Positions 7,207 through 45,638 of a stretch of DNA of 64,000 nucleotides are shown piece by piece. Numbering within the stretch: the stretch's first letter is position 1; each line of letters starts with the position of its first letter. The stretch is taken from the IMG/VR virus record IMGVR_UViG_3300044857_000313, positions 1 to 64,000 of that record; one strand, written 5' to 3'. A program made the translations under genes and the position numbers. This stretch comes from a virus. Under the pieces are notes generated by a model, which was not told where the DNA came from, did no database searches, and was given only the letters and a program-made list of their open reading frames with translations.

Positions 7207-7891
7207 TTAATGTTCCCATGAGTTCGCTACTCTCATAGCGTTCAAAACGAACTGCTATATGTCACCATATAGAACAGACTATCTCTTTACAGAAGCCTCT
7301 GTATCCACCGCTTCCCTCTGCTTAGAGGTACTCCCTTTCGGGATAGTCGTTACACTTTGCAAGTAGTGATAAGCATTTTGTAGCAAGGACGAATCTTCTT
7401 GAAACAGTCCTAATGCTCTATTACAATTATGACAAAGAAGGCCTCTCACATTTCCTGTTTCATGATCATGGTCAACCACAAGACACCCTGAATGATTAGT
7501 ACCCATCGGAAAATTCTCTTTACCACAAATTTTGCATACAAAGTTCTGTGACTCTGCAATTTCCAAATATCCATCTAAAGATATCCCGTAGACACGTTTG
7601 TAATAAGCATCTGCTACCCCATAGTTTTTACACTCATCTGAACAATAAAGTTCTGAGGGTGCTTTAGGGATAAATTCCTTATGGCATTTCTTACATCTCT
7701 TAGGTTTGAAATAGCCTTGTGGATACTTAGAAGGAGTTGCTGTCTGTTCTTTCTTAGGTTTATTCCAATCACGTAACAGTTTATGTAAGTATTCTTCTTT
7801 TGTCATATAATCACCTCTTGCCTTAGCACGGTATTGTCTTATTCCTAAGATGTTCACCGTTTTCAATGGATTTATAGACGCCCATTTAGTT
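7204..7891 (-). mobile_element. 688-nt intervening sequence splitting DNA polymerase A (intron-like, carries HNH gene)
   Basis: absent from copy B, where AAGACGTTT|ATCTACGC is continuous; P1-like AGACGUUU/GGGCGUCU and P10-like UAAAU/AUUUA pairings at its 5' end. Confidence 0.7.
7279..7806 (-). CDS. HNH / endonuclease VII-type homing endonuclease
   Basis: LVVDHDHETGNVRGLLCHNCNRALG plus N-terminal CxxC..CxxxC; start set at MTKEEY with GAGGTG SD (ORF open to 7866). Confidence 0.8.
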   Translation of the reverse strand: MTKEEYLHKLLRDWNKPKKEQTATPSKYPQGYFKPKRCKKCHKEFIPKAPSELYCSDECKNYGVADAYYKRVYGISLDGYLEIAESQNFVCKICGKENFPMGTNHSGCLVVDHDHETGNVRGLLCHNCNRALGLFQEDSSLLQNAYHYLQSVTTIPKGSTSKQREAVDTEASVKR

Positions 7892-9262: not shown

Positions 9263-9275
9263 AGAACCATCCTTT

Positions 9276-9464
9276 CTATCGTAACTTTTCTAAATCTTCT
9301 GCCTCTGTATCAAGATTAAAAGCCTCATTACGGAGCTTACTCGCAAGCTCTCTCTTTTTATCAGCAAGCAAACTAATTTTCTTCTGTCGCTGTGCCTGTA
9401 CCTTAATGCTCCACTGATACAGCTTTCGCCACAAGGCATCATAGAATTTAATAAACCACATCAA
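9276..9464 (-). CDS. hypothetical protein (62 aa)
   Basis: ORF conserved in copy B (53423..53608). Confidence 0.5.
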   Translation of the reverse strand: MMWFIKFYDALWRKLYQWSIKVQAQRQKKISLLADKKRELASKLRNEAFNLDTEAEDLEKLR

Positions 9465-9473
9465 GACACCCCC

Positions 9474-11258
9474 TTACTTTTTTAAATGGTGGTAGAATCG
9501 TTTTCCTGCTTCCTTCTGTCTTGCTTCGGAGAAGTTGCTAATGCGTTTCAGATACCCAATAACACGAGTACCATAATCAACATCCGTGCTCCCACATTTC
9601 ACACAATGGGTTTCTGTGTCTGTATTGATGTAGCCACATTCATTGCAAATCGTACACAAGACATTGGTTGTCCAATACTGTACACCATACTTAGAGCAAA
9701 GCTTATACAAATGGACAAACTGTTCTGCACTCAACATCTGTTCAAGATTCAGATGGAGCGCCGAACCCCCATCAAGGTACTGAACAATGTCCTTTGAATA
9801 CAATTTGAGCTTATCAAGTACATTCACCTTCGTGTCTTCTACAGGGTAGAAATAACTGTTGTAACAATCACGAGGTACATAAAGACCTGCTTCCTTATCC
9901 CATTTAGCATTTTTAACACCGAGATTTTCGGCAGGAACAAACTCAGTATTGAAGCGGACTCCATACTCAGACAGAGCGGCCTTATTAGACATCGTAAGGA
10001 AAGACAACAAGGACTGTAAATAATTAAGATATTCCTTGTCTGTCACAGTACCTTTCTTATCTCTCAGGTACTCAAAGTATTCCAAGACACCATTCACACC
10101 AAGGGTCAAGAACTGCTTATCAATGTCCATGAAGCCCTGTGTGTACGCAGGGAGCAAACCTGCATCAATATAGCCTTTCAACACTTCACGATGGGCCAAC
10201 AGGTACTTATGTACTCTGTCCACTACTTCGTCAAGCTTAATACCACATTGACCGATACGGTTGATGTTCAAACTAATGACACGAGCAGAACCCGTAACAA
10301 CACCACCTGCACCCAACGTATAACTGAATGTGTTGTCGGCCAATTTATTGCGCAAACGACAGCAAGACGCAAGACTATCCACCTTGTCAGACATATAGAC
10401 AAAGAAGGAAAGACCTTGTTCCTGTTCCTTTGCTAGTGTCTGCATAAAATCATTATCCTTGAAACCACCTCTGCCATCGGTCAAGAGTGCGGCGGTGACA
10501 ACAGGGAACGTCAACAACTCTTTTTCTCGTTCCTGTCTGAACCATCGCAAGAAATGCAACTGCAACCGATAGGTGCTTTCAATGTCTACCTGTGTACCGT
10601 CTGGATAGTAGAAACCACCAAACATTTCTTTCAGGTAATCATGATCAAACACACTCACATTCCAAAAGACAGACTGGTCCCCTCGTGCGCTGGCGGGCTG
10701 ATTCAGTGCGTAGACAACGCCCTGAAATTCCTGATTGACTTCTTCAAAGTGTTTACCAAGGTAATTTTTGCCCCACTGTTTCCGTGCAAAGTAGTCAAAC
10801 ATGTGAAGGAACTCAACAGTAGCAATAGCTCCACTGAAATTACTTGCAATCTGATAAACAAGATTGACAAAGGAACCGCAAAAGCTCTGCAAGTTCTTCG
10901 GTGCTTTAGACACACCGCCTAAGCACTTCGTACCCTCCAACAAGAAGGGATACAAAGTGATACTGGCACAATAAGGTTTCAAAGATGTTTCATCATGTGT
11001 ATAGATATAATGATTTGCAAGGTCCTCTTCATAAGCCGTTGCCATGTCTTCGCCAAACATCTGAGTCAGTTTGTCTTTAACCAATTTACGGTTAATCTGA
11101 ATAGTATCTGGCTTAAATAATTCCGCTTCCAAGCCTGCAATCGTCTTCTGAGTAACATTACTGTTCGCATCTACCTTAGAGGCCGTAGCGGCATTGGAAG
11201 ACACCATATAATCATGGATGTATTTAATCTTTTCTTTTAAATCAACATTAGGTAACAT
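9474..11258 (-). CDS. nrdD: anaerobic (class III) ribonucleoside-triphosphate reductase, copy A
   Basis: C-terminal CxxC..CxxCG zinc site then glycyl-radical motif TRVIGYL; start set at MLPNVDL just after nrdG stop (ORF track extends to 11315). Confidence 0.85.
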   Translation of the reverse strand: MLPNVDLKEKIKYIHDYMVSSNAATASKVDANSNVTQKTIAGLEAELFKPDTIQINRKLVKDKLTQMFGEDMATAYEEDLANHYIYTHDETSLKPYCASITLYPFLLEGTKCLGGVSKAPKNLQSFCGSFVNLVYQIASNFSGAIATVEFLHMFDYFARKQWGKNYLGKHFEEVNQEFQGVVYALNQPASARGDQSVFWNVSVFDHDYLKEMFGGFYYPDGTQVDIESTYRLQLHFLRWFRQEREKELLTFPVVTAALLTDGRGGFKDNDFMQTLAKEQEQGLSFFVYMSDKVDSLASCCRLRNKLADNTFSYTLGAGGVVTGSARVISLNINRIGQCGIKLDEVVDRVHKYLLAHREVLKGYIDAGLLPAYTQGFMDIDKQFLTLGVNGVLEYFEYLRDKKGTVTDKEYLNYLQSLLSFLTMSNKAALSEYGVRFNTEFVPAENLGVKNAKWDKEAGLYVPRDCYNSYFYPVEDTKVNVLDKLKLYSKDIVQYLDGGSALHLNLEQMLSAEQFVHLYKLCSKYGVQYWTTNVLCTICNECGYINTDTETHCVKCGSTDVDYGTRVIGYLKRISNFSEARQKEAGKRFYHHLKK

Positions 11259-11259
11259 T

Positions 11260-11799
11260 CTACACCCTCTTCCAAAATTTGTGTGTCTCATCCAGGAAGT
11301 ATGGACGACCATCAACTAAATTATCTTGTGCGTCAAGACGATAGGTTGCCGTGATTCGATAGAACCTCTGGTTTGTCCGTGTGCTTTCAAGACCACCCAA
11401 TGTAGCAACATAAGGGCCTGTCTTCAACCAAGTACAATGCCCTTCAACTGCAATCATCTTGTCATGGTCTTCATCATCACTCCCACTGTACAAACCTGTA
11501 GGAGCAATGAAAGCCAAATCACGTAGGAGAGCGATTAAAGATTCATCTGTGATATGCTTATTATTTGTACCGCCCATTACAACAATAGCGTTTGCCCCTG
11601 CATCAACGGCGTCCTGTGCTTCTTCTAAAATATCAAGAAGGGACGTTAAGTCCACATCTTCGTTCTGTAATTCTGGACTATGACAACCAACACAATGTTG
11701 TTTGCAAGCCCCTAATTCAAGCGCATAGGCCATTTTATCAGGCAATTCGTTGAATGTAATATCTGTATTAACAACAGGGTACTTTAAAACTCTTGACAT
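11260..11799 (-). CDS. nrdG: class III RNR activating enzyme (radical SAM), copy A
   Basis: CKQHCVGC = CxxxCxxC cluster motif, directly upstream of nrdD. Confidence 0.7.
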   Translation of the reverse strand: MSRVLKYPVVNTDITFNELPDKMAYALELGACKQHCVGCHSPELQNEDVDLTSLLDILEEAQDAVDAGANAIVVMGGTNNKHITDESLIALLRDLAFIAPTGLYSGSDDEDHDKMIAVEGHCTWLKTGPYVATLGGLESTRTNQRFYRITATYRLDAQDNLVDGRPYFLDETHKFWKRV

Positions 11800-13376
11800 G
11801 ATTCATCTTCCTCTCCTAGTAATCTGTGTCTGTCCTTATCCCAATGGAGATACCCTGCAAGCCCTGTTGAACCTGCAAAGCGATTCTTTAAGACACGAAT
11901 TTTAATCAAGTTTCTTTCGGACTCATCCTCTGCCTGTTGGTTGCGTTCTAGGGCTAATACTTCATCGGGTATTTGCTTCAATGTACCACTACCACGCAAG
12001 TCATCAAGCGAGATGATTCCACCTTCTTCAAAGGATTTTTCACCACTTGTCTTTTTTAAGTGGGATATAACAATCATCCCGACACCCGTTTCTTCAACAA
12101 GTGACCTTAACTGTGTCATCAATTTATCAATGGTCTTCCGTTCATCTCCACCTTCATCCATACCAGATACAGCAATAGAGATATGGTCGAAGATGATAAA
12201 ATCACATTGTTCCGCTACGGCTAAATAGCGGATACGAGACAACAAGTTCCCACTCTCAATCGAACCAAAGTGATCATAGAGGACAAACCGTTTATCACTG
12301 AACAGCTCTTCATAGGCTGTCTTTAACTTATCCTTGTCTACACTACCCCACATAATAGACAGAGGTTTTTCAACACGGATAGACAACAACTCACGGAGTG
12401 TCTTTTTCGGATTTTCTTCAAGAAAGACAAGCCCAATTTTCAGTCCATCCTTCACCTTGAGTTTGTAGGCAATCTCACGAGCCGCTGTAGACTTCCCAAT
12501 GCCTGTGCCTGCTGTCAGCATCACAAGCTCCCCTTTACGGAGGCCCTTCGTGATACTTTTCAGCCCCTTACACCATGGATAGTCGTAACACTGAGCTTCT
12601 GTGTCATCACTGAAAAATTCATCTTCAATATCAGCGGCATTGATAATCCCATCGGGCCTATATTCCTTTGCGGTAAAGATGGCCTGTATGATTGCGTCTC
12701 CCTTACCCACTACAAGACACGCATTGGCATCCTTTTCGGGTAGGTCTGCAATCTTTAGTTTGTGTGGAGACAACATCCCCTGCACATCCTCAACAGCCTT
12801 TCGTCCCTGAGCGTCCATGTCAAACATGACAATGACTTCATCAAAGGACTCTAACCATTCGAGGTTTTCTTTAAAGGTACGTTTAGCCGATGTACAGCCG
12901 TGAGGTAAGGACACAACAGGCCATTTGTTACCACCCATCTGTGACACGGTCAGACAATCAATCTCACCTTCTGTAATGACAAGTTTCTTGCCACTATGGA
13001 AAAGATTCTGTCCAAAAAATCTATAAGCAGAAGTACCGTTCAAATAGAACTTCTTGTCCTTTGTCCGTAACTTCTGGAAAAGAACAGAACCGTCCTCATC
13101 ACAATACTCTGCGACTTGAACGGTTCCCAATTGTGTCTTTGTAACATAATAGCCATAACGCTCACATGTTTCAGCAGACAGACCCCTAGCACGTAGTGTC
13201 TTAAACTCCATGTCCTCATGGAGAATAATGGAATGTTTAGCCACCTCTATACCTTCTTTCGGGAATTCTGTATGATGACAACTAAAACAATATGTGTGCC
13301 CGTCATCATACAGCGTAGCGGCATCATGACTACCGCAATATGGACACGGAATATGCGCCTGTACAATTTCCGACAT
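11784..13376 (-). CDS. primase-helicase (T7 gp4-like), copy A
   Basis: N-terminal CPYCGSHDA..CFSCHH zinc finger, TOPRIM region, Walker A GTGIGKST, DnaB-like C-terminal half. Confidence 0.9.
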   Translation of the reverse strand: MSEIVQAHIPCPYCGSHDAATLYDDGHTYCFSCHHTEFPKEGIEVAKHSIILHEDMEFKTLRARGLSAETCERYGYYVTKTQLGTVQVAEYCDEDGSVLFQKLRTKDKKFYLNGTSAYRFFGQNLFHSGKKLVITEGEIDCLTVSQMGGNKWPVVSLPHGCTSAKRTFKENLEWLESFDEVIVMFDMDAQGRKAVEDVQGMLSPHKLKIADLPEKDANACLVVGKGDAIIQAIFTAKEYRPDGIINAADIEDEFFSDDTEAQCYDYPWCKGLKSITKGLRKGELVMLTAGTGIGKSTAAREIAYKLKVKDGLKIGLVFLEENPKKTLRELLSIRVEKPLSIMWGSVDKDKLKTAYEELFSDKRFVLYDHFGSIESGNLLSRIRYLAVAEQCDFIIFDHISIAVSGMDEGGDERKTIDKLMTQLRSLVEETGVGMIVISHLKKTSGEKSFEEGGIISLDDLRGSGTLKQIPDEVLALERNQQAEDESERNLIKIRVLKNRFAGSTGLAGYLHWDKDRHRLLGEEDESCQEF

Positions 13377-13378
13377 AA

Positions 13379-13711
13379 CTAGTCGTCCCCATAGTGTACA
13401 TCAAGGACATATTTGTTCTTAATGTCCCTCATGGTTTTGCGCTGTGCATCGGACATGTCCTTTTCGCAGGCACAACCAACCAACAGCACATAGACGGAAT
13501 CTTTCGCATGAGCGAGTCTATAGTCACCGTAAGCGAGGAAGGGAATCCCTTCTTTCACTTCACCATTCGGCATCACGATCAGGTGATACCCGATATTGAA
13601 CAGACCTTCTCGTCGCTGTTCTACATAAATTTCCCGAATGGTCTTCACCTTCGGTTCAAACAAGACACGCACCATGTTAGTTTCCTCTCTTTCTTTGTAC
13701 TTCAAATTCAT
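13379..13711 (-). CDS. T7 gp3.5 (lysozyme/amidase)-like protein lacking zinc-ligand regions
   Basis: IREIY..GYHLIV..NGEV.EG..VLLVG..DAQRKTM aligns with T7 lysozyme core; segments holding His17 and His122/Cys130 absent. Confidence 0.55.
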   Translation of the reverse strand: MNLKYKEREETNMVRVLFEPKVKTIREIYVEQRREGLFNIGYHLIVMPNGEVKEGIPFLAYGDYRLAHAKDSVYVLLVGCACEKDMSDAQRKTMRDIKNKYVLDVHYGDD

Positions 13712-13723
13712 GTTCTCACCCCC

Positions 13724-14053
13724 TTACTTTTTCTTTTTAGGGATAAGACCTTTCATAGGCTTCTTCTTTTCTCTAAACCATGCGTCGGGAATCTGTCTAG
13801 TGGAGTATTTAAATCCATTTTTCTCCGCCCAATCTGCATAGGTTGTCTTACTGCCTTTATACAACTTCAACTTCGGATTTTGGAAGACAAACCGAATATC
13901 CAAATCAGGATATTGCAACTTGATAAGCAAGTGTTTCTGTCTGTCTTCCCTCTCAAAAATCCCTTTTGCTTCTATAATGATTCCATTCGGCAACACAAAA
14001 TCTGGAGTATACTTATGCTGTGTGGCAGGTTTTTCATAGTTGATGTAGTACAT
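13724..14053 (-). CDS. endonuclease I / Holliday junction resolvase (T7 gp3-like), copy A
   Basis: HKYTPDFVLPNGIIIEAKG..EDRQKHLLIK.QYPDLDIRFVF..KLYKGS matches T7 endo I; the homologous frame continues upstream to about 14155 without a start codon. Confidence 0.8.
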   Translation of the reverse strand: MYYINYEKPATQHKYTPDFVLPNGIIIEAKGIFEREDRQKHLLIKLQYPDLDIRFVFQNPKLKLYKGSKTTYADWAEKNGFKYSTRQIPDAWFREKKKPMKGLIPKKKK

Positions 14054-14361
14054 CTCATATTTTTCCTGCTTCTTTAGCTCCTGAATTTGTGCGCTAATGG
14101 TGTCTTCAAAATGACTTCTCTTTTTAGGTGGTCTGTATGTATACGCACCCCCATTACAAAAACTCCGTCTCAGGTCTTACCACCACCCCAATTACAAAAA
14201 CTTCGTTTCAGGTCTTATCACCACACTGTGAACGTACTCCCACCTCTATAGGCGGGAGCTTCCTGCTTCAACGAGAACAGCGCCACTGACTCCAAAGAGT
14301 TGTGGCATCTTACACTCTCTCCACAGGCGTAGATTCCCGTGCGACCCACGGTATGTTATGA

Positions 14362-14994
14362 TTAAAAATCTTCACCGTCATCCGAACCGTCCGTGAATGG
14401 TACATCTACATCCGAACGTGTGTCTTCTTCATCGTCATCAATGACAGACGTAGAATCAAAGGCATCCTCATGCTTCTTAAAGCCGAAAGAGCTTGCATCC
14501 TGCCCATTACCATACGGAACGTACTTCAACAGCTGTACCGCCTGTAAGCGGAAAGACACACCAAAGTTTTTAGATGTATTGTAATACGGAAAGAGCTGGT
14601 AGGCGACAGCAACGACGCTTCCATTACCAATAGAACGCTTGATTTTGCTAGTAACAGGCCGCTCAGCACCATCAAATACAGGAACAACCTTGTCAATTTC
14701 TTTACCTGCCTTCGTGACAATATGAGCATTAGTAACAAATTTAACACTTACGTCGCCCTTGTCATCTTCACGGAACGACCCCATATTAGGCTCTGCGGCG
14801 AACTTCTTGTTCTTGAGTGTTTCTTTAAATTCTTCCCACACCGTCTGGGCTTCCTGCATCAGATTATTCATGTCTTCAACAGACGGAACAAGAGTAATGC
14901 TATATTTGTTTGTGTCTGTACCATTAAAAGTTTCTGTGTCTGCTAAATGACACCACATAGCTTTCCCTGTAATTACACCATCATTCATATTCAT
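14362..14994 (-). CDS. ssDNA-binding protein (T7 gp2.5-like), copy A
   Basis: 210-aa ORF in gp2.5 position with acidic C-terminal tail ending DGSDDGEDF (terminal Phe as in gp2.5). Confidence 0.7.
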   Translation of the reverse strand: MNMNDGVITGKAMWCHLADTETFNGTDTNKYSITLVPSVEDMNNLMQEAQTVWEEFKETLKNKKFAAEPNMGSFREDDKGDVSVKFVTNAHIVTKAGKEIDKVVPVFDGAERPVTSKIKRSIGNGSVVAVAYQLFPYYNTSKNFGVSFRLQAVQLLKYVPYGNGQDASSFGFKKHEDAFDSTSVIDDDEEDTRSDVDVPFTDGSDDGEDF

Positions 14995-15011
14995 GTTTCA
15001 TTTCTCCTCTT

Positions 15012-15239
15012 TTATAATAAACTTGCACGAGTAACTAAAATCATGCCGTCGGAATTTTCGAGTAGTAAATCCGCTATGGCTGTCTTAATGCCGTCTTCAA
15101 GCTTTACATGCTTCCTGCGGGACTTAGCGGCGATGACGCCTAAAAGACACAAGGTATCATTATCATAAGTCCCGCCATATAAAAAGCGGATGAGCTTGTT
15201 TGCATAGGCAACATAAGGTTTGTTCATGGTTTCCATCAT
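15012..15239 (-). CDS. hypothetical protein (75 aa)
   Basis: ORF conserved in copy B (58989..59222). Confidence 0.5.
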   Translation of the reverse strand: MMETMNKPYVAYANKLIRFLYGGTYDNDTLCLLGVIAAKSRRKHVKLEDGIKTAIADLLLENSDGMILVTRASLL

Positions 15240-15267
15240 GGTTATTTCTCCTTTTTTGTAGTGGTCA

Positions 15268-15936
15268 TTACAATACGATACGGTCCCCGTTCTTGATTGT
15301 ATCTAACCACATTTCATAGACACAAAGTTTATCATAATCAGCTTTCATATCTTCCTCAGTGCCTTTATGACCCATACGGAGCCGATATTTAAGGATATTG
15401 CCCTTGAGGAAGCCGATAAACTCATCGTGACTAAATAAAGCCTGCATGACAAGAATAGGATTTACAACAGTCTCACGATAATGTTTATCATGCATAGTGT
15501 CTTCCTGCGTGTCTTCATCCTCATGGATACGGGAGACACGCTGTGCCTTAACTACGAATACGTCATCACTGCCACGGAACCGTACACCATATATTACTTT
15601 GGAGCTTTCTGCATCGGTGTTAGGAGTCTCCCACGCGTCAACAACTACTGCATAACCACTTTCGTGCGGTGGCGGCGTAGCCCCCCAATTAGACATATCC
15701 ACCCACACGGTATCATAGATATTAATGTTATTTTCAAACATCTTTAACACATGAAGTTCACCATCCAACCAGTCATAGCCAACCTTTTTGTCAGTATCCT
15801 TACCACTATCACCGTGTATAATAGATACAACTTTAGCCATGTATTCCTCTACAGAATCACTTGTCTTGTCATTATTACCTAAGACATTACGAACATCAGT
15901 AATGATAACGTCGTCGCCTACTTTAATTTCTCTCAT
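15268..15936 (-). CDS. modular protein with DUF3310/SaV-like C-terminal domain, copy A
   Basis: C-terminal HYRxxVVNPILVMQALF..FLKGNILKYRLRMGHKG; start set at MREIKV after dut stop. Confidence 0.45.
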   Translation of the reverse strand: MREIKVGDDVIITDVRNVLGNNDKTSDSVEEYMAKVVSIIHGDSGKDTDKKVGYDWLDGELHVLKMFENNINIYDTVWVDMSNWGATPPPHESGYAVVVDAWETPNTDAESSKVIYGVRFRGSDDVFVVKAQRVSRIHEDEDTQEDTMHDKHYRETVVNPILVMQALFSHDEFIGFLKGNILKYRLRMGHKGTEEDMKADYDKLCVYEMWLDTIKNGDRIVL

Positions 15937-15943
15937 GGTTCCT

Positions 15944-16441
15944 CTAGTCCTTTCCTGTGCTTCCAAATCCTTCGTGTGTCCCTTCTTTTGTAAGGGAATC
16001 CACTTCTACTAATTCAGTCTGAACGTTCTCTACAAGCATAACCTGTGCGATACGTTCCCCTTTATTGATTCTTGTAACACTACTTCCGATATTTTCAACA
16101 AGCAAAAACAATTCATCGACATAGTCACTATCAACAATCCCTGTGCCATTTGCTAGTCTCAGTTTTGTTTTAAGACCTGTAGAAGACCGTACATAGACCT
16201 CTAAATGATATCCTTCGGGAATCTCAAACGCTACGCCTGCGGGGACTTTATAAGCTTTGTCCTGACCCCGTTGCGGATATAATGTCACTGTGTCATTTGC
16301 AAAGACATCATAGCAAGCAGATGACGCCGTAGCCCTATAAGGTGCTTTTGCGTCAGGTGTAATACGTGCGAATTTTAAAGACACTAAAGATTTATTGTTT
16401 GTGGTTGTCTTCCTTCGCTTGCGTGTTGTTTGTTCTGTCAT
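15944..16441 (-). CDS. dut: dUTPase, copy A
   Basis: RSSTG..LANGTGIVDSDYVDELFLLVEN..GERIAQ trimeric dUTPase motifs. Confidence 0.8.
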   Translation of the reverse strand: MTEQTTRKRRKTTTNNKSLVSLKFARITPDAKAPYRATASSACYDVFANDTVTLYPQRGQDKAYKVPAGVAFEIPEGYHLEVYVRSSTGLKTKLRLANGTGIVDSDYVDELFLLVENIGSSVTRINKGERIAQVMLVENVQTELVEVDSLTKEGTHEGFGSTGKD

Positions 16442-16486
16442 TGTTTATGCTCCTTTCAAAAGCAAAATAGAAAATGAAGACTTTCT

Positions 16487-16509
16487 TTCTTCGTTAGGTG
16501 CCACAATTA
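16487..16509 (-). promoter_or_regulatory. phage RNAP promoter, type A (TAATTGTGGCACCTAAC|GAAGAA)
   Basis: 23-nt T7-architecture motif (-17 TAAT, +1 G) repeated in arm A; tandem with next. Confidence 0.65.
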
Positions 16510-16535
16510 AAAAGACACACCTTGAAAGACTTTCT

Positions 16536-16558
16536 TTCTTCGTTAGATGCCACAATTA
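16536..16558 (-). promoter_or_regulatory. phage RNAP promoter, type A variant (TAATTGTGGCATCTAAC|GAAGAA)
   Basis: 49-bp tandem repeat of the previous unit, one change at -5. Confidence 0.5.
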
Positions 16559-16728
16559 AATGTGTGTCTTGCTACAAAGAGAAAAAGACATACAAAAAGA
16601 GAAATACTTAAATTATTTATATTAATTATTAATTATCATCAATAATTAATAATAAAAGAACTATAAGTATCTTAAAGTATCTTTAAGTATATATAGTTAC
16701 TTTAAGTATCTTATAGTTCTTTTCTCTT
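16559..16728. other. AT-rich repeat region between phage promoters, candidate replication origin (arm A)
   Basis: very AT-rich; 12-bp inverted repeat AAGAACTATAAG/CTTATAGTTCTT, three AAGTATCTT repeats; flanked by phage promoters downstream of the RNAP gene, as at the T7 primary origin. Confidence 0.4.
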
Positions 16729-16751
16729 CTCTTCGTTAGGTGCCACAATTA
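16729..16751 (-). promoter_or_regulatory. phage RNAP promoter, type A
   Basis: TAATTGTGGCACCTAAC|GAAGAG immediately after RNAP stop. Confidence 0.65.
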
Positions 16752-16766
16752 CAAACTATATAATAT

Positions 16767-19400
16767 TTATGCAAAGCAGTATTTGCTGTTTATCACCTCA
16801 TCAAGATTTAAATTTCCTTTTGTTGGAAGTTCAGGTACTTCTTTATTCGAGGGTAAAAGATATTCTACATCATCCAGCCATTCTTCTAAATAATTATGTC
16901 CTTTGTACATGTTGACTAATTCGGTGCGGATCGCCTTAAATATGCTCCCTGCGTGTTCCATATCTGTACCAAAGCTGTCATGAATCATAAAGAAATTATT
17001 GTTCCCCTTTTCTGCCTGATTCATGATAACTCGTTGCATGTGACAAGCATCCATAGAGTGGATAAAGTTCGGTGCGATTGCTTGTGCTTGTCCTCGTGTG
17101 TCTATATCTGTACCCTCTTTAGGGACGTATAAGCGAATGAAACCCCCATTAAAGCGCATCTTACATGTTTCAATATTAGGTACAAACTTGTTCTGTTGAA
17201 TCGGTAAGCCATTTGGGCTTGTCCATGCTACAGCCTCTCCGTTCTTACCAACCATGCCTGCAATCTTTTTCAGCCACTCCATCCCTTCAACAGCCTTTAC
17301 AACCGTTGTGGTTACAGCATCCCAAATAAGACCTGCCATGTAGTTTGCGGCCTGTGAGCGACTCAAGAAAATCGTGTTGTCTTTATGTTCGTCAATCCAT
17401 GGCTTGATAATGTCGCTCTTGAGATTTTCGGAGAATCCATATTTACGGCTTCCATAGGCAAGAGTCATGACGGAGCGTTTGCACACTTTACGCTTGATAC
17501 CATCTGTACCAAACTTTTGTTGTGCATAAGACAACCATTCTGTAGCCAACTCTTTTGTACCGTACACAATGCACTTTTTACCGTTGCTGTCAAGTACATA
17601 TTCGCCATTTTTTTTGTCTTTTTTGTAGTCGTCTGCCGTCCCTGTAATGACATCTTGATGTAAGACAACATTCACCTTATCCGCTACAACTTGATAAATG
17701 TCATGGACGGTTTCGTCGGGAATTAGATTAACGTTCTTGCCCCCTATTTCATCGGCGAGGAGCATGGAGAAATGTTGTAAGCCTGAGCAGGTTCCGTCAA
17801 AGCTGATAGGAAGACCCGACTTGAATCCCACAGCAGACCCGTCATGATCAGATTGATAGACACGGAGTCTTTCAAATTCAAAACAGAAGGCCAGAAATTC
17901 CATGGGACTCTCATCGCCTGCCACTTCGTCCCACCATGTATACGTTAAAGGGGAAGCGGCGCTCTGTAAAATGTTGTCTTCATTATCAAGTACCCATTGG
18001 ATACGGTCATCAAAGGGAATCTTGTCAAGACCTGCAAAGCCTGCGCCTGCAATGTAAAACCACTTGAGGGCTTCGTTACTTGACAAGGGTGTTGGCTCCG
18101 CAAAGAGGAGTAAGGCTTTCTGTGTGTCGTCCCCCTGCGGATTCAAGGCAGGACACATAGGGTATATACGTCCTCTATAGTCTAAGTTCCATGGGAAGTA
18201 GATTTTTTCATACTTGCTGTACTTCTTTGCACAGCCTAAAGAGGTATTTGTTCTAAGCACCTTGGATGCTCTAGCTCTTTCATGCTTGTAATAAGCAACA
18301 AGACGTTTTTTATGAGCTTCAAGTTCTTCGGGTGTCGGGTCAATCAAATGTGGAATTTTGGGCGTTTCGTCCGTTCTGGGAAGGCCCCCTAAGCCCCCAT
18401 GGTTCTCCATAATAGACGCCATGGTATTAAGGATTCTTTCGTTGATTATAAAAGGTGTTGACTGTAAAGCATTAACGCACTTGAAAAGCCATGTTAAGTC
18501 AAGCTGTTCACACTTTTCTAAATACTGTGTCATATAAACATTATGTTGGTTAAAGTTGGCACGGATAAAATGAGCAAAAAGAGCATTTGCACCATAATAA
18601 GCGCCTTCCCATACACTGCTCCACGGTTTAGGGGGTACGACACAGGGATTGAATTTATATGTATTTAAAGCAAGCATATCAATACTTTTTTCCCATGTTT
18701 CTACAAGCCAGTCGACGGCCTTTAAGACTTTACGCTGTCCTAGTTTACCGTTTTTGTTTTCTGCTTCTGTTTTGTACTCAAAGTAGTCACTACCTTTTAA
18801 AACCGCATCCACTAAGACAAGGAGCAATTTATATAAATTGGTAGTGTCTAATTCTTGCGGTGAAAATCCCATAGCTTTATAAGCTTTATGGGCATATTGT
18901 ACTTTGTATTCTTTTTGACCTCGATGTTTCAAACCATCTTCAAAAAAGGCTCCGTCCTGCCGTGTGGCATTTTTTAAGTATTCGTAACTTGTTACTTCTT
19001 CCCTAAAATCGTCCGCAAGCCCATCCATAAAGCAATCAAGGTATGTATAAGTATCGCCTGCGCTATGTAAGACAGCACCAATAAGCGTATTTAAAATTGT
19101 GGTGACACTCATTTTAATTAGTGTGTCTTCATCCCCTTCATAAAGGGCCTTGAGTTGGTTTACAACCCCTTGATATTTTGGCACTACTCCCCTTTTTTTC
19201 TGAGGAAATAAAACGTTTTTCACGTTGTCATAGCAATCAGAAAATACATGTTCCATTAATTTGCTTCCTACTTTTGTTTCTCCTGCTTTACCATCTAAGG
19301 CCGCTTGAGCATAAGTAGCTTTTAATACCTGTTCCGCTAACTGTTTCGATTCTTTTTCAAGTGCTAATTGTTCTTGTAAAGTACCCTTGATTTTTTTCAT
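16767..19400 (-). CDS. single-subunit DNA-directed RNA polymerase (T7 gp1-like), copy A
   Basis: T7 RNAP C-terminal motifs AIAPNFIHSMDA, FFMIHDSFGT, LPTKGNLNLDEV..KYCFA; start aligned with copy B MEKIKGTLQEQ (ORF open to 19406). Confidence 0.95.
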   Translation of the reverse strand: MKKIKGTLQEQLALEKESKQLAEQVLKATYAQAALDGKAGETKVGSKLMEHVFSDCYDNVKNVLFPQKKRGVVPKYQGVVNQLKALYEGDEDTLIKMSVTTILNTLIGAVLHSAGDTYTYLDCFMDGLADDFREEVTSYEYLKNATRQDGAFFEDGLKHRGQKEYKVQYAHKAYKAMGFSPQELDTTNLYKLLLVLVDAVLKGSDYFEYKTEAENKNGKLGQRKVLKAVDWLVETWEKSIDMLALNTYKFNPCVVPPKPWSSVWEGAYYGANALFAHFIRANFNQHNVYMTQYLEKCEQLDLTWLFKCVNALQSTPFIINERILNTMASIMENHGGLGGLPRTDETPKIPHLIDPTPEELEAHKKRLVAYYKHERARASKVLRTNTSLGCAKKYSKYEKIYFPWNLDYRGRIYPMCPALNPQGDDTQKALLLFAEPTPLSSNEALKWFYIAGAGFAGLDKIPFDDRIQWVLDNEDNILQSAASPLTYTWWDEVAGDESPMEFLAFCFEFERLRVYQSDHDGSAVGFKSGLPISFDGTCSGLQHFSMLLADEIGGKNVNLIPDETVHDIYQVVADKVNVVLHQDVITGTADDYKKDKKNGEYVLDSNGKKCIVYGTKELATEWLSYAQQKFGTDGIKRKVCKRSVMTLAYGSRKYGFSENLKSDIIKPWIDEHKDNTIFLSRSQAANYMAGLIWDAVTTTVVKAVEGMEWLKKIAGMVGKNGEAVAWTSPNGLPIQQNKFVPNIETCKMRFNGGFIRLYVPKEGTDIDTRGQAQAIAPNFIHSMDACHMQRVIMNQAEKGNNNFFMIHDSFGTDMEHAGSIFKAIRTELVNMYKGHNYLEEWLDDVEYLLPSNKEVPELPTKGNLNLDEVINSKYCFA

Positions 19401-19440
19401 ATGCATTTACTTCCTTTCTTTAAGTGACACATTTTTTATT

Positions 19441-19463
19441 TATTTCGATAGGTGCCACAATTA
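19441..19463 (-). promoter_or_regulatory. phage RNAP promoter, type A, directly upstream of the RNAP gene
   Basis: TAATTGTGGCACCTATC|GAAATA, about 40 nt upstream of RNAP start. Confidence 0.6.
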
Positions 19464-19582
19464 AACTTTTAGGTTGACAAAATATTTGTTAGTATTTTAA
19501 ACATACGTTTGGTGCTTGATTAAAAAATAATAAAGATAGACAGCAATCATCTATCTACGAACACTTGTTCGATACCTAGGGT

Positions 19583-19622
19583 ATAAAAATGGCGTGTCCC
19601 TGCCGTGTTGGTAAAGACACGC
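19583..19622 (-). terminator. GC-rich hairpin plus U-tract between early genes and RNAP gene
   Basis: GGCGUGUC-16 nt-GACACGCC then AUUUUUAUACC; conserved (one mismatch) in arm B at 63584-63624. Confidence 0.45.
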
Positions 19623-19684
19623 CTTGAGTTAGAACAGTTGTTCGATATTCTATTATTGTATCAAACGTTCGTTTGCCTTGCTAG

Positions 19685-23194: not shown

Positions 23195-24298
23195 ATGCCA
23201 AGAACACGACAAAGACGAAATAAGGGTGAAGGTTCGATAACCAAGACACCCAATGGGAAGTACAAAGCCACCATCACGATTGGAGTGGGTATTGATGGCA
23301 AGCAAAAGAGGAAGTCGGTAACAAGAGACACCAAGCGAGAAGTCATCGACGCCATCACGGAAATAAGACACAAATATAATATAGGTGATGTATCAAAGGG
23401 TGTGTCTAAGAGCGTCAAGGACGTTTGTGATGAGTTTTTAGACACCAAGGAACAGAAACTCACTGTGTCCTCTTTCGTGTCTTACAAAATGCACATCAAG
23501 GCATTTAAAGAGGTGTTTGGAAATATGATGATGGAAAATATAACAAAGACCATGATTGAGGATTACTTTAAGTCCCTGTCCCCTCATCATTATAAACCAA
23601 CTACCTTAAAGACCAAGAAGGCTATATTGTCTATCTTCTTTAGAGAAGCAAAGAAGGCAGGGTATATCAAAGAGAATATAATGGAGACAGCCAGTATCCC
23701 TATCAAGCGTGTCTTACCCAAGGCATCTACTATGATACTCCCCACTCCTGAACAGTTCCATAGGATACTAGAGGAAGCGGAAAAGTATGCCCATTGGTAT
23801 TATGTGCTCCTCTATTTTGCCTCTGTTACAGGAATGAGACGAGGAGAACTTTTAGGATTGAAATGGGACTGTGTGGATAAAGACACCAAGACGATCAGAA
23901 TTAATAATCAAATAAACATCAAGGGTGTAGACAGTCCATTAAAGACCCCTGCGGCCTATCGGACAATTCATGTCACCCCAAAGGCTTTTGAGGAGCTAGA
24001 CACACTGCCACATGAAGGAGCTTATGTTTTTTCGCGTCCCAAAGCCCCTACAAGGCCTGTTACAAGAGCTATGGTGTCTTTGGCTACCAACAGGGTATTT
24101 AAGGCCGCTGAGGCCCCAAAGGGATTTACTTTTCATGATGTAAGACATTATCACGCAACACAGCTTTTAAAGCATGGTATTAACCCAAAGGTTGTCAGTA
24201 GGAGATTAGGACACACATCGGTAGTTACTACCCTCAACATCTACTTTAATTATCTCCCCAGTATGGACGAAGAGGCCAGTGTTGTCTTAGACACGTAA
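23195..24298 (+). CDS. int: tyrosine integrase
   Basis: 367-aa ORF; N-terminal SAM-like arm domain, catalytic region TGMRRGE..HDVRHYHAT..LGHTSVVTTLNIY (R..HxxR..Y). Confidence 0.9.
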   Translation: MPRTRQRRNKGEGSITKTPNGKYKATITIGVGIDGKQKRKSVTRDTKREVIDAITEIRHKYNIGDVSKGVSKSVKDVCDEFLDTKEQKLTVSSFVSYKMHIKAFKEVFGNMMMENITKTMIEDYFKSLSPHHYKPTTLKTKKAILSIFFREAKKAGYIKENIMETASIPIKRVLPKASTMILPTPEQFHRILEEAEKYAHWYYVLLYFASVTGMRRGELLGLKWDCVDKDTKTIRINNQINIKGVDSPLKTPAAYRTIHVTPKAFEELDTLPHEGAYVFSRPKAPTRPVTRAMVSLATNRVFKAAEAPKGFTFHDVRHYHATQLLKHGINPKVVSRRLGHTSVVTTLNIYFNYLPSMDEEASVVLDT

Positions 24299-24463: not shown

Positions 24464-24706
24464 CTAAAGGGTAATACTTGTGTCTATCGAGTGGCGCAAG
24501 AACTCGTATAGACCTTTGCGGTGTATTCTCCAATGAGTACCTATCTTAAATGCTTTCAAGGATTCATTATAGCACAAGGCGTAAACAGTAGACAAGGGAA
24601 CTCCTAGCATCTCTGAAACTTCTTTAGGAGAGAAGGTAAGGCGAGTGTCCCATTTATGAGAAGGAGTTGAGGTGAAACCATCAACATCAATACTTAAATA
24701 GGCCAT
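24464..24706 (-). CDS. xis: excisionase-like helix-turn-helix protein
   Basis: FSPKEVSEMLGVPLSTVYALCYNESLKAFKIGTHWRI typical of the Xis/HTH_17 family; convergent with int. Confidence 0.55.
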   Translation of the reverse strand: MAYLSIDVDGFTSTPSHKWDTRLTFSPKEVSEMLGVPLSTVYALCYNESLKAFKIGTHWRIHRKGLYEFLRHSIDTSITL

Positions 24707-24988: not shown

Positions 24989-25603
24989 CTAATTATCATG
25001 TAGCTCTCTAATAGCTTTTATACATCTATTATTATGCGAACTATTTGTATAATTAGGCAATACGGATTCATTCAGCCAATCCTCAAGCTGTTCAGCTGTC
25101 AGCTCTGTAAGTTGACTATCTTCATCCACATCCATGCGCTCCATAAAATAAGACACCCCAATAGTCAGGGCATCCAATCTATCATCATGACTTAGGGCGT
25201 TCTTATCACGACATAAGCGTGTCATTTGATAAATCAGGGAATAATGATAGTCCTGTTGGAAGACCTTAAAATCCTGTTCTACTACTGGACGATTCACAAT
25301 TAGCTTATGCCGCATCATAACCGGCTCTAGGGTGTCTATCATACGCAATTCCTTTTGCCCTCTATTGGTAACAGGTTCAATGCCGCAAGGGTGGATTTTA
25401 TTGAAGATAGGTGTCATCAACTTAGTGAACATGCCATCCCCAAAGTTATCTTCGGGAACTACAACATCCACATCCCAGAACTTAGCACGATTTGCCATCT
25501 GAGTCAGCGTCAAGTCCGAATATCCCTCTTTAAAGCCCCCTACATCCATAAGGAACAAATAGCCATTCAGGTACTTTAAGATTGCATAGACTGTTTCGTC
25601 CTT
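24989..25603 (-). CDS. terL: terminase large subunit, exon 2 (nuclease domain)
   Basis: begins KDETVYAILKYLNGYLFLMDVGG, continuing the ..AIDPSGRG of exon 1; no ATG (track start is TTG). Confidence 0.85.
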   Translation of the reverse strand, partial: KDETVYAILKYLNGYLFLMDVGGFKEGYSDLTLTQMANRAKFWDVDVVVPEDNFGDGMFTKLMTPIFNKIHPCGIEPVTNRGQKELRMIDTLEPVMMRHKLIVNRPVVEQDFKVFQQDYHYSLIYQMTRLCRDKNALSHDDRLDALTIGVSYFMERMDVDEDSQLTELTAEQLEDWLNESVLPNYTNSSHNNRCIKAIRELHDN

Positions 25604-26414
25604 CAATCAGCCTATGCGTTCTGCTTTCCAACCCTTTGAGTGATGTCGGTTTCCTTTAGCCACTTGACGTAGATTTTGGGGTGAAAGATTATGCTCTCTG
25701 CAAAAAGCAGTAAAAGAAAAAGGCTCATACATCGTACCATCAGGTGCAATAAGCCTGAATCTTTCACCCTGTCCATAATTATGAGGAACATGCCCTTTTT
25801 GAAGAGTAGTAGGGAGACAGTCAGCACATACTGTCCCTGACTTGCGTTTTTGTAAATATTTACCACAAATAGGACAACGAACTGTTTTTCTGTCTCCCCC
25901 TGCTCTTACATTCCACCCCATATGCATTTTAGGACGTAGATTATATTCTATTGTTAATGCTTCTTCTTTTGGTAACATAGCAATTAAATCAATTTGAATA
26001 TTATCCTTACCCAGTTGTCTTAGAATTGTGCCAACAGGTCTCTTGCTACACATATGCTGACTAAGACGATAGGAAAGACTACGGCGAGTAACACCCACAT
26101 AACCTTCCTGTATATTTCTGTTTCCTACTTCATGGATATGGTACACTTTATATAATCTTGTTTTTTCTCTAAACAATAACATCACTCTCTTTTCTTTTTA
26201 GTGTTACGGTACATCGTTAGGGTACCTCACTATATTGCTATAGTGTTCAGACTATATCTTCTATCAAAAGATAGTGCGCTGTTTCCACCGAACCATTGCG
26301 GTGTACTAATAGTCGTTGAACGTTTCCTTATAAAAGGACTTCGCTGCTGATTGTCTTAGAAAGAGTTTCCAGCAATTAAGCGCATTTTTTAACGTAGGAG
26401 CAAGGACGTATTTT
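25604..26414 (-). mobile_element. group I intron-like element in terL carrying a GIY-YIG gene
   Basis: guide sequence GUCCUU-GCUCCUA (26395-26407) pairs with 3' exon AAGGAC and 5' exon UAGGGGU (U.G at splice site); intron ends in G; 229-nt ORF-free 5' part with several hairpins incl. GCAA tetraloop. Confidence 0.7.
25607..26185 (-). CDS. GIY-YIG homing endonuclease
   Basis: YKVYHI..GYVGVT..R..QH..E..GWNVRAGG plus C-terminal NUMOD-like HHSKGW. Confidence 0.8.
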   Translation of the reverse strand: MMLLFREKTRLYKVYHIHEVGNRNIQEGYVGVTRRSLSYRLSQHMCSKRPVGTILRQLGKDNIQIDLIAMLPKEEALTIEYNLRPKMHMGWNVRAGGDRKTVRCPICGKYLQKRKSGTVCADCLPTTLQKGHVPHNYGQGERFRLIAPDGTMYEPFSFTAFCREHNLSPQNLRQVAKGNRHHSKGWKAERIG

Positions 26415-27497
26415 ACCCCTACCCGATGGGTCTATAGCCATCACTGTTGTCTGATAGGGCATCGTTTCGGGACTACGGGACAGCTCACTGTAGTAATAGT
26501 CCCCTGCCATGGCTGTACAGGGAATATCAGACAAGAGCTGTTCCCTGCCTTTTGCCCATGCCCATTTGAGGCTACTTTCCTTCATATCAAGGTTAGTGAT
26601 AATCAAATCAGACACCTTCAACGGATACTTTTCAGCATCCGACAACCGAGTATTGAGCATATACTGGAGAGCAAACCCTGCTTTCCCATAAGACAAGGAA
26701 CGCTTCGCAATTTCTTCCTCATTGAATCGCAAGGGGTCTGTAGGCTTCCCTTCAAGACTAGGGTCAGCTTTCAGTTTGTTCCAAATAGAGGGAGCAAGGG
26801 AATCACCATAATTATCTTCTACCCTTGATAATTGAGGATACAAGACAGGCCAGATACGCGCAATATATCCACGGTCTTGTAAGGTGTTGTACAGACTTGA
26901 TTCAGTCTGTGGTGTACCGAGATATATGATCTGGCCGTTCGGTTTCAAGATAGCATCAAATTCCTTTACGGCCTCTGAGAGCTTATCACGCTGTTGCTGT
27001 GTTGCTGAGTTTTTCGGGACTTCTACGTCATCGGCAATTAGAATGTCTGCACGTGTCCCTGTAATCTGCCCAGTGATACCAATGGACTTTACAGAGGGGG
27101 AAATATCAGGAACGACACCCCCAACATCAAAGATATTCTGTGTGTCTAACTGCCCCTTGTCTGCAATCATGTCAGACAAGAAAGGGAGTGTCTGTATGAT
27201 ACGCTTGATAAAGCGAGCGTTCGCATCCGCTCTGTCCCCAGAGGCAGACACAATCAAAATCTTTAGCTGTCTTTCCTTCCACAATCTCCACACTACATAA
27301 GCACATGTCAAGAAGGACTTAGCGACACCACGGAACCCCTCAAGAATGATACGGTCTTTAGGGGGGTTCTGGAGATAGTTTGCAATGTCAATTTGAATGG
27401 GTGTCGGCTGTGGAAGGTCAATAGACCGCCATACAATATAGACAAAGGCCCAGAAGTGTTCACGTGCCTTCTGGACATCCGCTTCACTCCATTTCAA
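26415..27497 (-). CDS. terL: terminase large subunit, exon 1 (ATPase domain)
   Basis: Walker A-like GFRGVAKS, ILIADDVE; ORF runs 12 codons into the intron before its stop (26376). Confidence 0.85.
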
Positions 27498-43099: not shown

Positions 43100-43666
43100 T
43101 TATCTCCTTTCCAATGCACTCTGCATCCCTGTGGTCTGAAACATGTTGGAACCTGTGTCTATACAATACTGGACAATATCGGCATAAGCTCTTGATTCTT
43201 CAATCCGTAACTCCTGAGATACATTTTCGTCACCAAGGTAACGTTCCTGAAAGAAAATAGCCGCTTCTGCTGTAATGAATGTTTTGAACTCATCAGGCAA
43301 GTCCTCAAAGTCAACGGCTTCAATGATGGTAAGTTGCACCTCTTCATTGAAGGTATCTGTCTTCTCTGTAAGATTGTATAGAAAATCCCCACGTTTTACA
43401 TAGACCTCACCATTCGTCGCTGTAATCTTTATCCATGATGGATTGTATCGAATCTTTTTGCTGTTGGTGTCTGGCATAATAGTTACATTGGTCATGGTGT
43501 TGAACTGCCAGCCTTGACGCTGGATATTTCGAGACACCGTAGCTAGTAGGCTTCGTGCATTATCAACATCAATAGATTCACTCTCTGTTAAGCTATTGAC
43601 AGGAGCTTCCCCAATGCCTGAAAGAATCAGATTGATTGCGTCTAACTCTGTGGATACAAATAGCAT
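43100..43666 (-). CDS. tail tubular protein A (T7 gp11-like)
   Basis: 188-aa ORF; AINLILSGIGEAPVNSL and QRQGWQFN as in gp11. Confidence 0.8.
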   Translation of the reverse strand: MLFVSTELDAINLILSGIGEAPVNSLTESESIDVDNARSLLATVSRNIQRQGWQFNTMTNVTIMPDTNSKKIRYNPSWIKITATNGEVYVKRGDFLYNLTEKTDTFNEEVQLTIIEAVDFEDLPDEFKTFITAEAAIFFQERYLGDENVSQELRIEESRAYADIVQYCIDTGSNMFQTTGMQSALERR

Positions 43667-43681
43667 CTTTTCACTCCCTTT

Positions 43682-43714
43682 AAAAGAATAAAAAGGGGAG
43701 CATTACACTCCCCT
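43682..43714 (-). terminator. hairpin plus U-tract downstream of capsid gene B
   Basis: identical to 127-160. Confidence 0.6.
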
Positions 43715-43732
43715 ACACCTATCAACAATCTA

Positions 43733-45623: not shown

Positions 45624-45638
45624 TATTTATCAATCTCC

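Follow-up and report, generated by a model that had tools for sequence, protein, structure and literature searches.

The stretch of viral DNA analysed here, 64,000 nucleotides (nt) from IMG/VR record IMGVR_UViG_3300044857_000313 (positions 1 to 64,000; hereafter the window), carries terL, the large terminase gene of a T7-like phage, in two pieces separated by an insert that we interpret as a mobile group I intron. All three parts lie on the minus strand, as do the features described below unless a plus strand is given. The upstream piece, exon 1 (26415..27497), has 361 codons and encodes the ATPase domain, as judged from the open reading frame (ORF) list, its translation and an alignment to the T7-family terminase 8dgc_E. 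The downstream piece, exon 2 (24989..25603), has 204 codons and a stop and encodes the RNase H-like nuclease domain, as judged from Pfam family PF22530 and the same alignment. The upstream ORF (27497..26376) reads ..AIDPSGRG and then runs through 12 unrelated codons (KIRPCSYVKKCA) to a stop, and the nuclease-domain frame is picked up again at 25603 as KDETVYAI... The gap between the exons is 811 nt (26414..25604) and contains an ORF for a putative homing endonuclease.

Exon 1 ends in ..GAC CCA UCG GGU AGG GGU and exon 2 begins with AAG GAC GAA ACA. Joining GGU to AAG (26415 to 25603) gives an open frame of 565 codons that reads ..IDPSGRG|KDET.., with no frameshifts or stops in the exons. The predicted ligated junction is ..GGUAGGGGU|AAGGACGAA.., and the window's own intron-less flank would read ..AGGGGUAAGG... 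An initial annotation of this DNA, made from the sequence alone, had placed the two terL pieces at these coordinates and proposed a 565-residue join with a continuous DPSGRGKDET motif; the ORF list, the translation and the minus strand agree with it throughout.

The spliced protein matches PHROG 38 (5e-119) and aligns to the solved structure 8dgc_E over residues 11-541 (567 bits) and to 4bij_A (524 bits), while exon 2 matches Terminase-T7_RNaseH-like, PF22530, at 9.3e-32. The 11-residue motif that spans the junction, IDPSGRGKDET, is identical in spliced TerL and 8dgc_E. When phage records were searched by tblastn, at least 80% of spliced TerL was covered at one place in 2644 of them, all Autographiviridae-like and all at less than 60% identity. 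The similarity is full-length and collinear and includes the RNase H-like nuclease domain, as expected of a T7-type large terminase (gp19 / DNA maturase B). The locus should be read as one spliced 565-codon gene, and not as two fragments and a hypothetical protein.

A predicted group I ribozyme and its splice sites

The insert (25604..26414) consists of a 229-nt ribozyme part, the endonuclease ORF and a three-nucleotide tail, UUG, and its boundaries are as in the intron-less alleles described below. The Rfam family RF00028 (Intron_gpI) matches at 26465..26228, covering approximately the first 190 nt of the insert, with a score of 78.7 bits (E = 1.4e-19, model positions 1-253) against a gathering threshold of 50 bits. 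This is the sole Rfam match above threshold in the 64-kb window, and the homologous inserts of relatives score 52-82 bits.

We assigned the helices manually, with backing from covariation. The ribozyme core and its periphery (26208..26384) comprise P3 (26384-26379/26280-26275), P4 (26374-26369/26350-26345), P5 (26364-26361/26357-26354), P6 (26343-26342/26322-26321), P6a (26338-26334/26329-26325), P7 (26316-26309/26255-26249), P7.1 (26303-26299/26290-26286), P8 (26274-26270/26265-26261), P9 (26245-26239/26234-26228, with a GCAA loop) and P9.1 (26226-26222/26212-26208, with a conserved UAACGA stretch in its loop). P7 forms a pseudoknot with P3, and a G-C pair beside its bulged C is the presumed guanosine-binding site. 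Every helix outside the pseudoknot was recovered in the minimum free energy fold (z = -2.79). The hairpin at the P7.1 position, CACCG..CGGUG (26303..26286), covaries, and both a second hairpin and P2 are absent; subgroup IA introns carry the additional helices P7.1 and P7.2 in this region, after the 5' strand of P7 and before the 3' strand of P3.

The initial annotation had singled out the hairpin CACUAUA-GCAA-UAUAGUG, which is present at 26245..26228 and corresponds to P9. It had named Rfam models and a manual P3-P9 assignment as ways to check its proposal, and both bore the proposal out, the first through the score given above and the second through a full core with the P3/P7 pseudoknot and the presumed guanosine-binding site. 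Its further claim, that the ORF must overlap the 3' core elements, does not hold: P3-P9 and P9.1 (26384..26208) all lie upstream of the ORF start at 26185, and beside the ORF's stop codon there is only the 2-bp P9.0 and the terminal G.

Homologous introns were available for comparison in number. The internal ORF has 69 homologues in a metagenomic protein collection and is encoded in 45 IMG/VR loci, in 40 of which (L004-L043) it lies within terL, either at the window's codon (residue 362/363) or adjacent to it. For 18 distinct 5' intron parts we built a MAFFT alignment, blind to structure, and counted on it a 60-pair structure that includes the P3/P7 pseudoknot. Paired cells made up 91.3% of those observed, compared to 32-46% when the 3' partners were slid by 1-3 columns. 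Compensatory changes were seen at 40 of the 60 pairs (11-19 when slid) and double changes in 203 cells (22-31 when slid), none of 500 shuffles came up to the observed score, and each helix contains at least one compensatory pair. The G-C pair of P7 (alignment columns 144/215), the predicted guanosine-binding site, is invariant in all 18 sequences, with a bulged C or A just before it, and A-U is exchanged for G-C in the pair on the other side of the bulge. Thus, the complete conserved core, the covariation and the RF00028 score support a group I intron, with comparative evidence for all of its helices.

The splice sites are set out by an internal guide sequence (26394..26408). Its first part, CGUCCUU (26408..26402), forms the P10 strand and its second, GCUCCUAC (26401..26394), the P1 strand. 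P1 (26422-26415/26401-26394) pairs the last 8 nt of exon 1, GUAGGGGU, with the guide, that is (G)UAGGGGU in 8 bp, with U26415.G26401 at the splice site. P10 pairs AAGGAC with GUCCUU and extends to 7 bp when the next C-G pair is counted (AAGGACG in exon 2). At the 3' end of the intron (25604..25606), UU (25606..25605) forms P9.0 with AA (26247..26246) in J7/9 and is followed by the terminal G at 25604. These elements include the guide that the initial annotation had drawn, 5'-GUCCUU-GCUCCUA-3' (26407..26395), whose pairings are present and covary in homologues, and the U (26415) and G (25604) that it had placed at the ends of exon 1 and the insert.

Comparison across 25 distinct homologues shows how these pairings follow the exons. 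All 25 have the U.G pair at the splice site, with 6-8 of 8 pairs in P1, compensatory changes at positions -6 and -7, and changes in the guide that match synonymous changes in the exon (AGG GGU/GCUCCU, CGU GGU/GCCUCG, ACU GGU/GCCUGU). P10 is 5-10 bp long in 24 of the 25 and tracks exon 2, with variants AAGGAC/GUCCUU, GCAGAU/AUCUGC, ACAGAC/GUCUGU and AAGGAUGAG/UUCAUCCUU. Both pairs of P9.0 form in 20 of the 25, as AA/UU, AC/GU or GA/UC, and every one of the introns ends in G. Without recourse to the protein alignment, the covarying P1, P10 and P9.0 together define both splice sites. One homologous intron, at L036 2274..3029, lies one codon upstream (IDPSGR|GSDET) and has an exceptionally long potential P10 with exon 2 (7 + 11 bp), suggesting that the splice site can slide within this intron family.

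These pairings also bear on a different account of the locus, in which the terminase is genuinely split, with a free-standing homing endonuclease gene between two terL fragments that are translated separately into two polypeptides without splicing. Gene callers and GenBank do annotate such loci as separate coding sequences (CDSs), for example 40A/40.5/40B in phage K1E and gp44-47 in Klebsiella phage Henu2_3, and for exon 2 of the window the ORF lister accepted an in-frame TTG at 25606 as a start. Yet the junction coincides exactly with a complete group I ribozyme in which every helix covaries, and P1, P10 and P9.0 track exon sequences across lineages, which would be pointless without splicing. 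The break falls inside an invariant 11-residue active-site motif, exon 1 would bear a 12-residue unrelated tail, and no Shine-Dalgarno-like sequence was noted ahead of exon 2. We regard two separate polypeptides as very improbable.

We propose instead that the gene is spliced. The intron's first ~210 nt would fold, within the late transcript, into a complete ribozyme that comprises P1, P3-P9 and P9.1 together with a P7.1 hairpin, has its P9 capped by a GNRA loop and lacks P2. The guide would hold the end of exon 1 in P1, and exogenous guanosine bound in P7 would cleave at the U26415.G26401 pair. The 3' splice site, ~600 nt away and past the ORF, would be recruited by the 7-bp P10 with the start of exon 2, by the 2-bp P9.0 and by binding of the terminal G25604. 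Ligation of the exons would then restore IDPSGRG|KDET and the 565-residue T7-type large terminase. We expect that the RNA is catalytic and that it splices, presumably independently of a protein cofactor.

The endonuclease family and points against a mobile intron

The endonuclease ORF (25607..26185) encodes 192 residues from a GUG at 26185 or 191 from an AUG at 26182 and has a purine-rich AAGAGAG stretch upstream. Its stop at 25607 lies, as had been described, 3 nt before the 3' splice site at 25604. Shine-Dalgarno-like sequences precede the start in the homologues inspected, which argues for independent translation. In nine homologous loci (L029, L030, L031, L043, L036, L010, L011, L032 and L034) the ORF stops 1-8 nt inside terL exon 2, and the last codons thus overlap the exon and the P10 pairing.

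In the predicted protein, a GIY-YIG-like domain at the N-terminus is followed by a CxxC..CxxC zinc ribbon and, at the C-terminus, by a NUMOD/I-HmuI-like DNA-binding domain. The GIY-YIG family PF01541 (cutoff 22.6 bits) was matched by 19 of 28 aligned homologues, a set 47-93% identical, and ten homologues scanned singly scored 25.3-31.8 bits over profile positions ~4-68 of 78. The I-HmuI NUMOD-like family PF22083 was matched by 22 of the 28. Seven residues (Y14, Y28, G30, R39, H43, E79 and N91) are invariant in the 28 sequences and kept in the window's copy; we take them to have catalytic roles, by analogy with I-TevI and in line with the pattern of the family (the Tyr of GIY, Tyr-x-Gly of YIG, then Arg, Glu and Asn). 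The C-terminal domain resembles the DNA-binding domain of I-HmuI (PDB 1u3e) in both profile (E = 3.5e-4) and fold (Foldseek, 1u3e_M, E = 3.1e-4). The AlphaFold models were predicted with a mean local distance difference score (pLDDT) of 83-84, and residues 10-82 form a strand-strand-helix-helix-strand-helix arrangement. A model of residues 1-100 had a pLDDT of 84 and a predicted template modelling score (pTM) of 0.76. The exact sequence of the endonuclease had no match in the assembly index.

Several observations weigh against the reading of this insert as a mobile group I intron with a GIY-YIG-type gene. The window's own protein gave no match to PF01541 at E <= 0.1, nor any GIY-YIG match in NCBIfam; its own Pfam matches are weak, namely zinc ribbons and, below threshold, the NUMOD-like PF22083 (16.8 bits). 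Foldseek found no PDB match below E = 1 for the model of residues 1-100 and matched the full-length model in its C-terminal domain alone, and a profile search of PDB sequences returned no GIY-YIG entry. An hhalign comparison with an I-TevI sequence aligned the YVG..R..H motif but stayed short of significance (E = 0.14). At the RNA level, Rfam's own alignment puts P1 in the wrong place, and the window's copy permits a second P1 register, GUCCUUGCU with GGUAGGGGU, with 9 of 9 pairs. This register is wobble-rich, with five wobble pairs, and is absent from the homologues, and we preferred the homologous one. Finally, ~600 nt separate the 3' splice site from the core, and a search of the window and 16 homologues turned up no conserved long-range helix to loop out the ORF.

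The GIY-YIG assignment is thus made at the level of the family, from profile matches and conserved motif residues and not from a direct match of the window's protein. The GIY-YIG label of the initial annotation stands for the family, and the window's protein itself falls below Pfam detection.

As a candidate for an ORF-closing helix we considered GAGUGAUGU (~26193..26184), at the ribosome-binding site and start codon, with ACAUCACUC (~25650..25640). Relative to shuffled sequences, RNAduplex gave z of ~-1 for the window and ~0 in the 16 homologues, the pairing is not conserved, and the candidate was rejected. The 9-10-bp complementarity between these two segments is shared with the closest relative, L007, alone and could serve to mask the endonuclease start codon.

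In another account, the intron is real but splices only with the help of a host or phage protein or of active translation, or this copy has decayed and left a packaging-defective prophage. Some introns of Bastillevirinae phages are spliced in vivo and not in vitro (PMC11878797), no conserved helix closes off the ORF ahead of the remote 3' splice site here, and selection on terL could be relaxed if the element lies in an integrated prophage. Against this, the core helices are all intact, the terL exons are open throughout, and the endonuclease ORF is likewise open with all family-invariant residues kept. The intron also recurs in three viral contigs of 38-46 kb (L004-L006) at the same length of 811 nt, identical or near-identical where compared. 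Dependence on a cofactor, or decay, appears to us unlikely, and an intact and self-sufficient intron is the reading that we carry forward.

Alleles with and without the intron

Four IMG/VR contigs (L050-L053) carry terL as one uninterrupted 1695-nt ORF plus stop, joined exactly at the predicted junction. Their terL is 99-100% identical to the window's in protein and 93-97% in nucleotides, and their junction codons are synonymous but different from those of the window. The junction is thereby fixed by intron-less alleles, and the insert is a presence/absence polymorphism among closely related genes. The intron-less alleles show 4-6 synonymous differences within the 12 nt upstream of the insertion site, with G and not U at position -1, a cluster well above their overall divergence of 3-7%.

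Among TerL sequences at least 99% identical, four states occur: no intron (L050-L053), this intron only (the window), an intron at residue 157/158 only (L057) and both introns (L004-L006). The L057 intron is a group I intron of 258 nt without an ORF and interrupts the Walker B motif. In a more distant relative, L007, TerL is only ~60% identical and the intron is 95.6% identical to that of the window; the 30 nt directly upstream of the junction are 97% identical, and identity beyond them is 30-67%. The window-type flank (..AGGGGU|AAGG..) was seen joined to the intron in two JGI contigs (L135 and L136) and in L004-L007, and no IMG/VR or JGI contig showed it joined directly to exon 2. The 23-mer of the ligated junction with the window's codons (GGGTAGGGGTAAGGACGAAACAG) likewise had no match in these contigs, so that they give neither a direct sign of spliced RNA nor an intron-less allele bearing the window's flank.

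We infer from the flanks and the patterns of presence and absence that the intron has been transferred horizontally with a short co-conversion tract, although the numbers are small and gain and loss are not strictly separable. In the mechanism we propose, the ORF that follows P9.1 would be translated from its own ribosome-binding site into a homing endonuclease of the GIY-YIG family. This enzyme would cut intron-less terL alleles of related phages, and repair would copy the intron together with a short tract of the flanking exon.

Alternatively, the intron splices but is no longer mobile, its ORF product being inactive or serving as, for example, a maturase, and the patchy distribution records intron loss and not homing. 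The sub-threshold Pfam score of the window's protein and the lack of a structural match for its N-terminal model fit this account, and presence or absence alone would arise from gain or loss alike. It is hard, however, to obtain by loss an intron 95.6% identical in a terL only ~60% identical, with so sharp an edge to the 30-nt flank identity. The catalytic residues of the family are kept in the window's protein, and the window-type flank occurs with the intron and never without it in the contigs searched. We consider loss of mobility rather unlikely and favour a mobile intron with an active endonuclease.

Considered together, the covariance score, the covariation in 18 introns, the intron-less alleles and the family-level Pfam matches indicate a group I intron with a GIY-YIG-type gene in a T7-like terL, and in this the initial annotation was correct. 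Its structure and junction have as much support as analysis of sequence can give. We put the probability that the 811-nt insert is a mobile group I intron at roughly 0.9.

Further introns were noticed in the terL genes of relatives at three other sites, with Rfam scores of 63-79 bits and up to three introns per gene. At residue 157/158 (ILIADD|VEVP, Walker B), they lie at L004 1335-1584, L005 799-1048, L011 853-1046, L037 1239-1484 and L038 760-1005, and the intron at this site has two forms, the 258-nt ORF-less form and one of ~790 nt with an ORF. A second site is at residue ~416 (L015 and L027, from 3228) and a third at residue ~509 (L012 3455-3687). The human-faecal phage contig MT835557.1 (L002 in our set) has an insert of ~750 nt at TerL residue 177/178 (1993..2741), with an ORF (2103..2573) for a 156-residue HNH endonuclease. 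This insert has no Rfam match at E <= 0.01 and could be an intron of an unrecognised type or mark a truly split gene. In Ralstonia phage RpT1 (L003, OK274245.1), terL is annotated as three overlapping CDSs (1004..2726). The three pieces are joined by tblastn with nothing inserted, and the breaks look like frameshifts or sequencing errors and not introns. The terL genes of this clade have at least four independent group I intron sites (157/158, 362/363, ~416 and ~509), in addition to the unexplained insert with the HNH ORF at 177/178.

Related introns, phage context and host

The architecture of the window's intron, with the core followed by the ORF and then a remote 3' splice site, can be likened to that of the T4 nrdD (sunY) intron with I-TevII, in which the ORF lies 3' of the catalytic core and the remote 3' splice site is reached via P9.0, P10 and the terminal G. 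In the T4 td intron the ORF instead loops out of P6; its product, I-TevI, serves as the prototype of GIY-YIG intron endonucleases and carries a zinc finger as well as a separate DNA-binding domain. Both T4 introns differ from that of the window in the host gene, and the window's endonuclease gave no significant sequence or fold match to the catalytic domain of I-TevI.

Homologues of the endonuclease were found by tblastn in the split terL of cultured Autographiviridae. The carriers include K1E, Lelliottia phage phD2B, Vibrio phage VEN, several K1- and Klebsiella-specific phages, and further Klebsiella Henu2_3, P284 and vB_KpnP_ZH4 and Pseudomonas PA28. The initial annotation was not aware of an intron in a T7-like terL. 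Homologous elements are in fact carried by K1E, phD2B and Henu2_3, and the layout has been in print since 2014, when the genome note on phD2B described a terL split by an intron with a homing endonuclease gene and gave K1E as the sole similar case among Autographivirinae (PMC4246154).

In K1E and phD2B, as in the window, a T7/SP6-like large terminase is broken at the start of the nuclease domain (IDPxG motif), and an endonuclease of ~170-190 residues is 33-36% identical to that of the window over 94% of its length. K1E also has an Rfam group I match of 63.6 bits just upstream of the ORF, the arrangement seen in the window. These two are virulent enterobacterial phages, unlike that of the window, and their TerL is only ~35% identical; judging from its P1 and P10 as we read them, K1E would splice two codons further upstream, at IDPAG|GGKNGDET. 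No report of a splicing test for K1E or phD2B was found in the literature. The endonucleases of Henu2_3, P284, ZH4 and PA28 are closer, at 47-50% identity, and these phages differ from that of the window in having Proteobacteria as hosts. The Henu2_3 insert lies at the window's codon (IDPAGCG|GDE) with an Rfam match of 59.6 bits just upstream of the ORF. At TerL residue 157/158, Henu2_3 has another group I intron. Some relatives of the window likewise have an intron at this site, and the window itself lacks one. The records of all four give separate terL CDSs and a 'GIY-YIG nuclease superfamily protein', with no intron feature.

Group I introns in terL are known outside the T7-like phages. Splicing of the TerL intron of SIOphi (Bastillevirinae) has been shown experimentally (Nucleic Acids Res 2025, PMC11878797). 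The terL group I intron of phage LL-H, which the initial annotation had offered as a precedent, is cited as such in PMC9610469, where reference 93 is Mikkonen & Alatossava 1995. The self-splicing group I introns in the terL of LL-H and Bastillevirinae often carry endonuclease ORFs, as does that of the window, and sometimes occur several to a gene. They differ from it in belonging to siphovirus and myovirus terminase lineages, with unrelated insertion sites and endonuclease families. The DNA polymerase introns described in T7-like phages show that essential genes of such phages can be interrupted, in conserved motifs, by self-splicing group I introns. They differ from the window's terL case in gene and in endonuclease type.

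The window contains a candidate of this latter kind. In the partial phage copy (see below), the family A DNA polymerase gene has an insert of ~686 nt (7201..7886); the other copy has an uninterrupted gene at 50200..52119. An ORF in the insert (7279..7866) encodes a 195-residue Endonuclease VII-type protein (PF02945, 1.5e-19). Rfam gives a group I match below threshold at 7429..7255 (31.7 bits, E = 8e-6), accompanied by R/S-like elements and a P9-like hairpin with a GNRA cap, and the junction falls in motif B of Pol A (..AKTFN|YAYLYGAG). Judged from these elements, the insert is probably a second group I intron.

The whole window is phage-like and of T7 type. It encodes a single-subunit RNA polymerase, a T7-type helicase-primase, a family A DNA polymerase, a portal, a Gp10A-like capsid, a nozzle, a gp18-like small terminase and NrdD. 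Positions 1..19656 and 43556..63656 are 84-94% identical with a period of ~43.5 kb, which indicates two related T7-like genomes in tandem. Between the terL end of one copy and the start of the next, adjacent to terL, lie genes for a tyrosine integrase (23195..24298, plus strand) and an excisionase-like HTH_17 protein (24464..24706); integrases are uncommon in T7-like phages. The arrangement may represent either tandem prophages or a concatenated or mis-assembled pair. The complete phage copy also has a Bro-N/ANT antirepressor-like gene (52133..53395), in a segment (~52170..53422) with no match in the first 22 kb of the other copy.

The endonuclease family has one genome match in GTDB, a Veillonella metagenome-assembled genome in which a related prophage carries a 62%-identical endonuclease. 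With this as the sole match in a genome collection, the host is probably a gut or oral anaerobe, and the match is suggestive of Veillonella as the genus. As would fit an anaerobic host, the complete phage copy has a gene for NrdD (53622..55475; PF13597, 5e-100), an anaerobic ribonucleotide reductase. Nothing specific on the host was found in the literature.

The terL element is an ordinary member of an intron family already seen in T7-like phages, and represents no new kind of element or mechanism. The more interesting material is the surrounding population, with its multiple intron sites, its alleles with and without introns and the clustered differences at the target site, which we rate as a moderate lead and not a discovery. 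Gene callers split such terL genes in the public collections examined, so that TerL-based phage detection and phylogeny are broken for this clade. We tentatively suggest that intron homing may be unusually active in the terL of this clade of temperate T7-like phages, with anaerobes of the human gut and mouth as likely hosts, and that the locus might record a continuing conflict between endonuclease and resistant targets, possibly between co-resident prophages in tandem like the two in the window. The same intron is found in terL genes from ~35% to 100% identical to that of the window. With its matched plus and minus alleles, co-conversion-like flanks and covarying P1, P10 and P9.0, the locus offers a natural series for the study of homing, set in temperate T7-like phages of the human microbiome.

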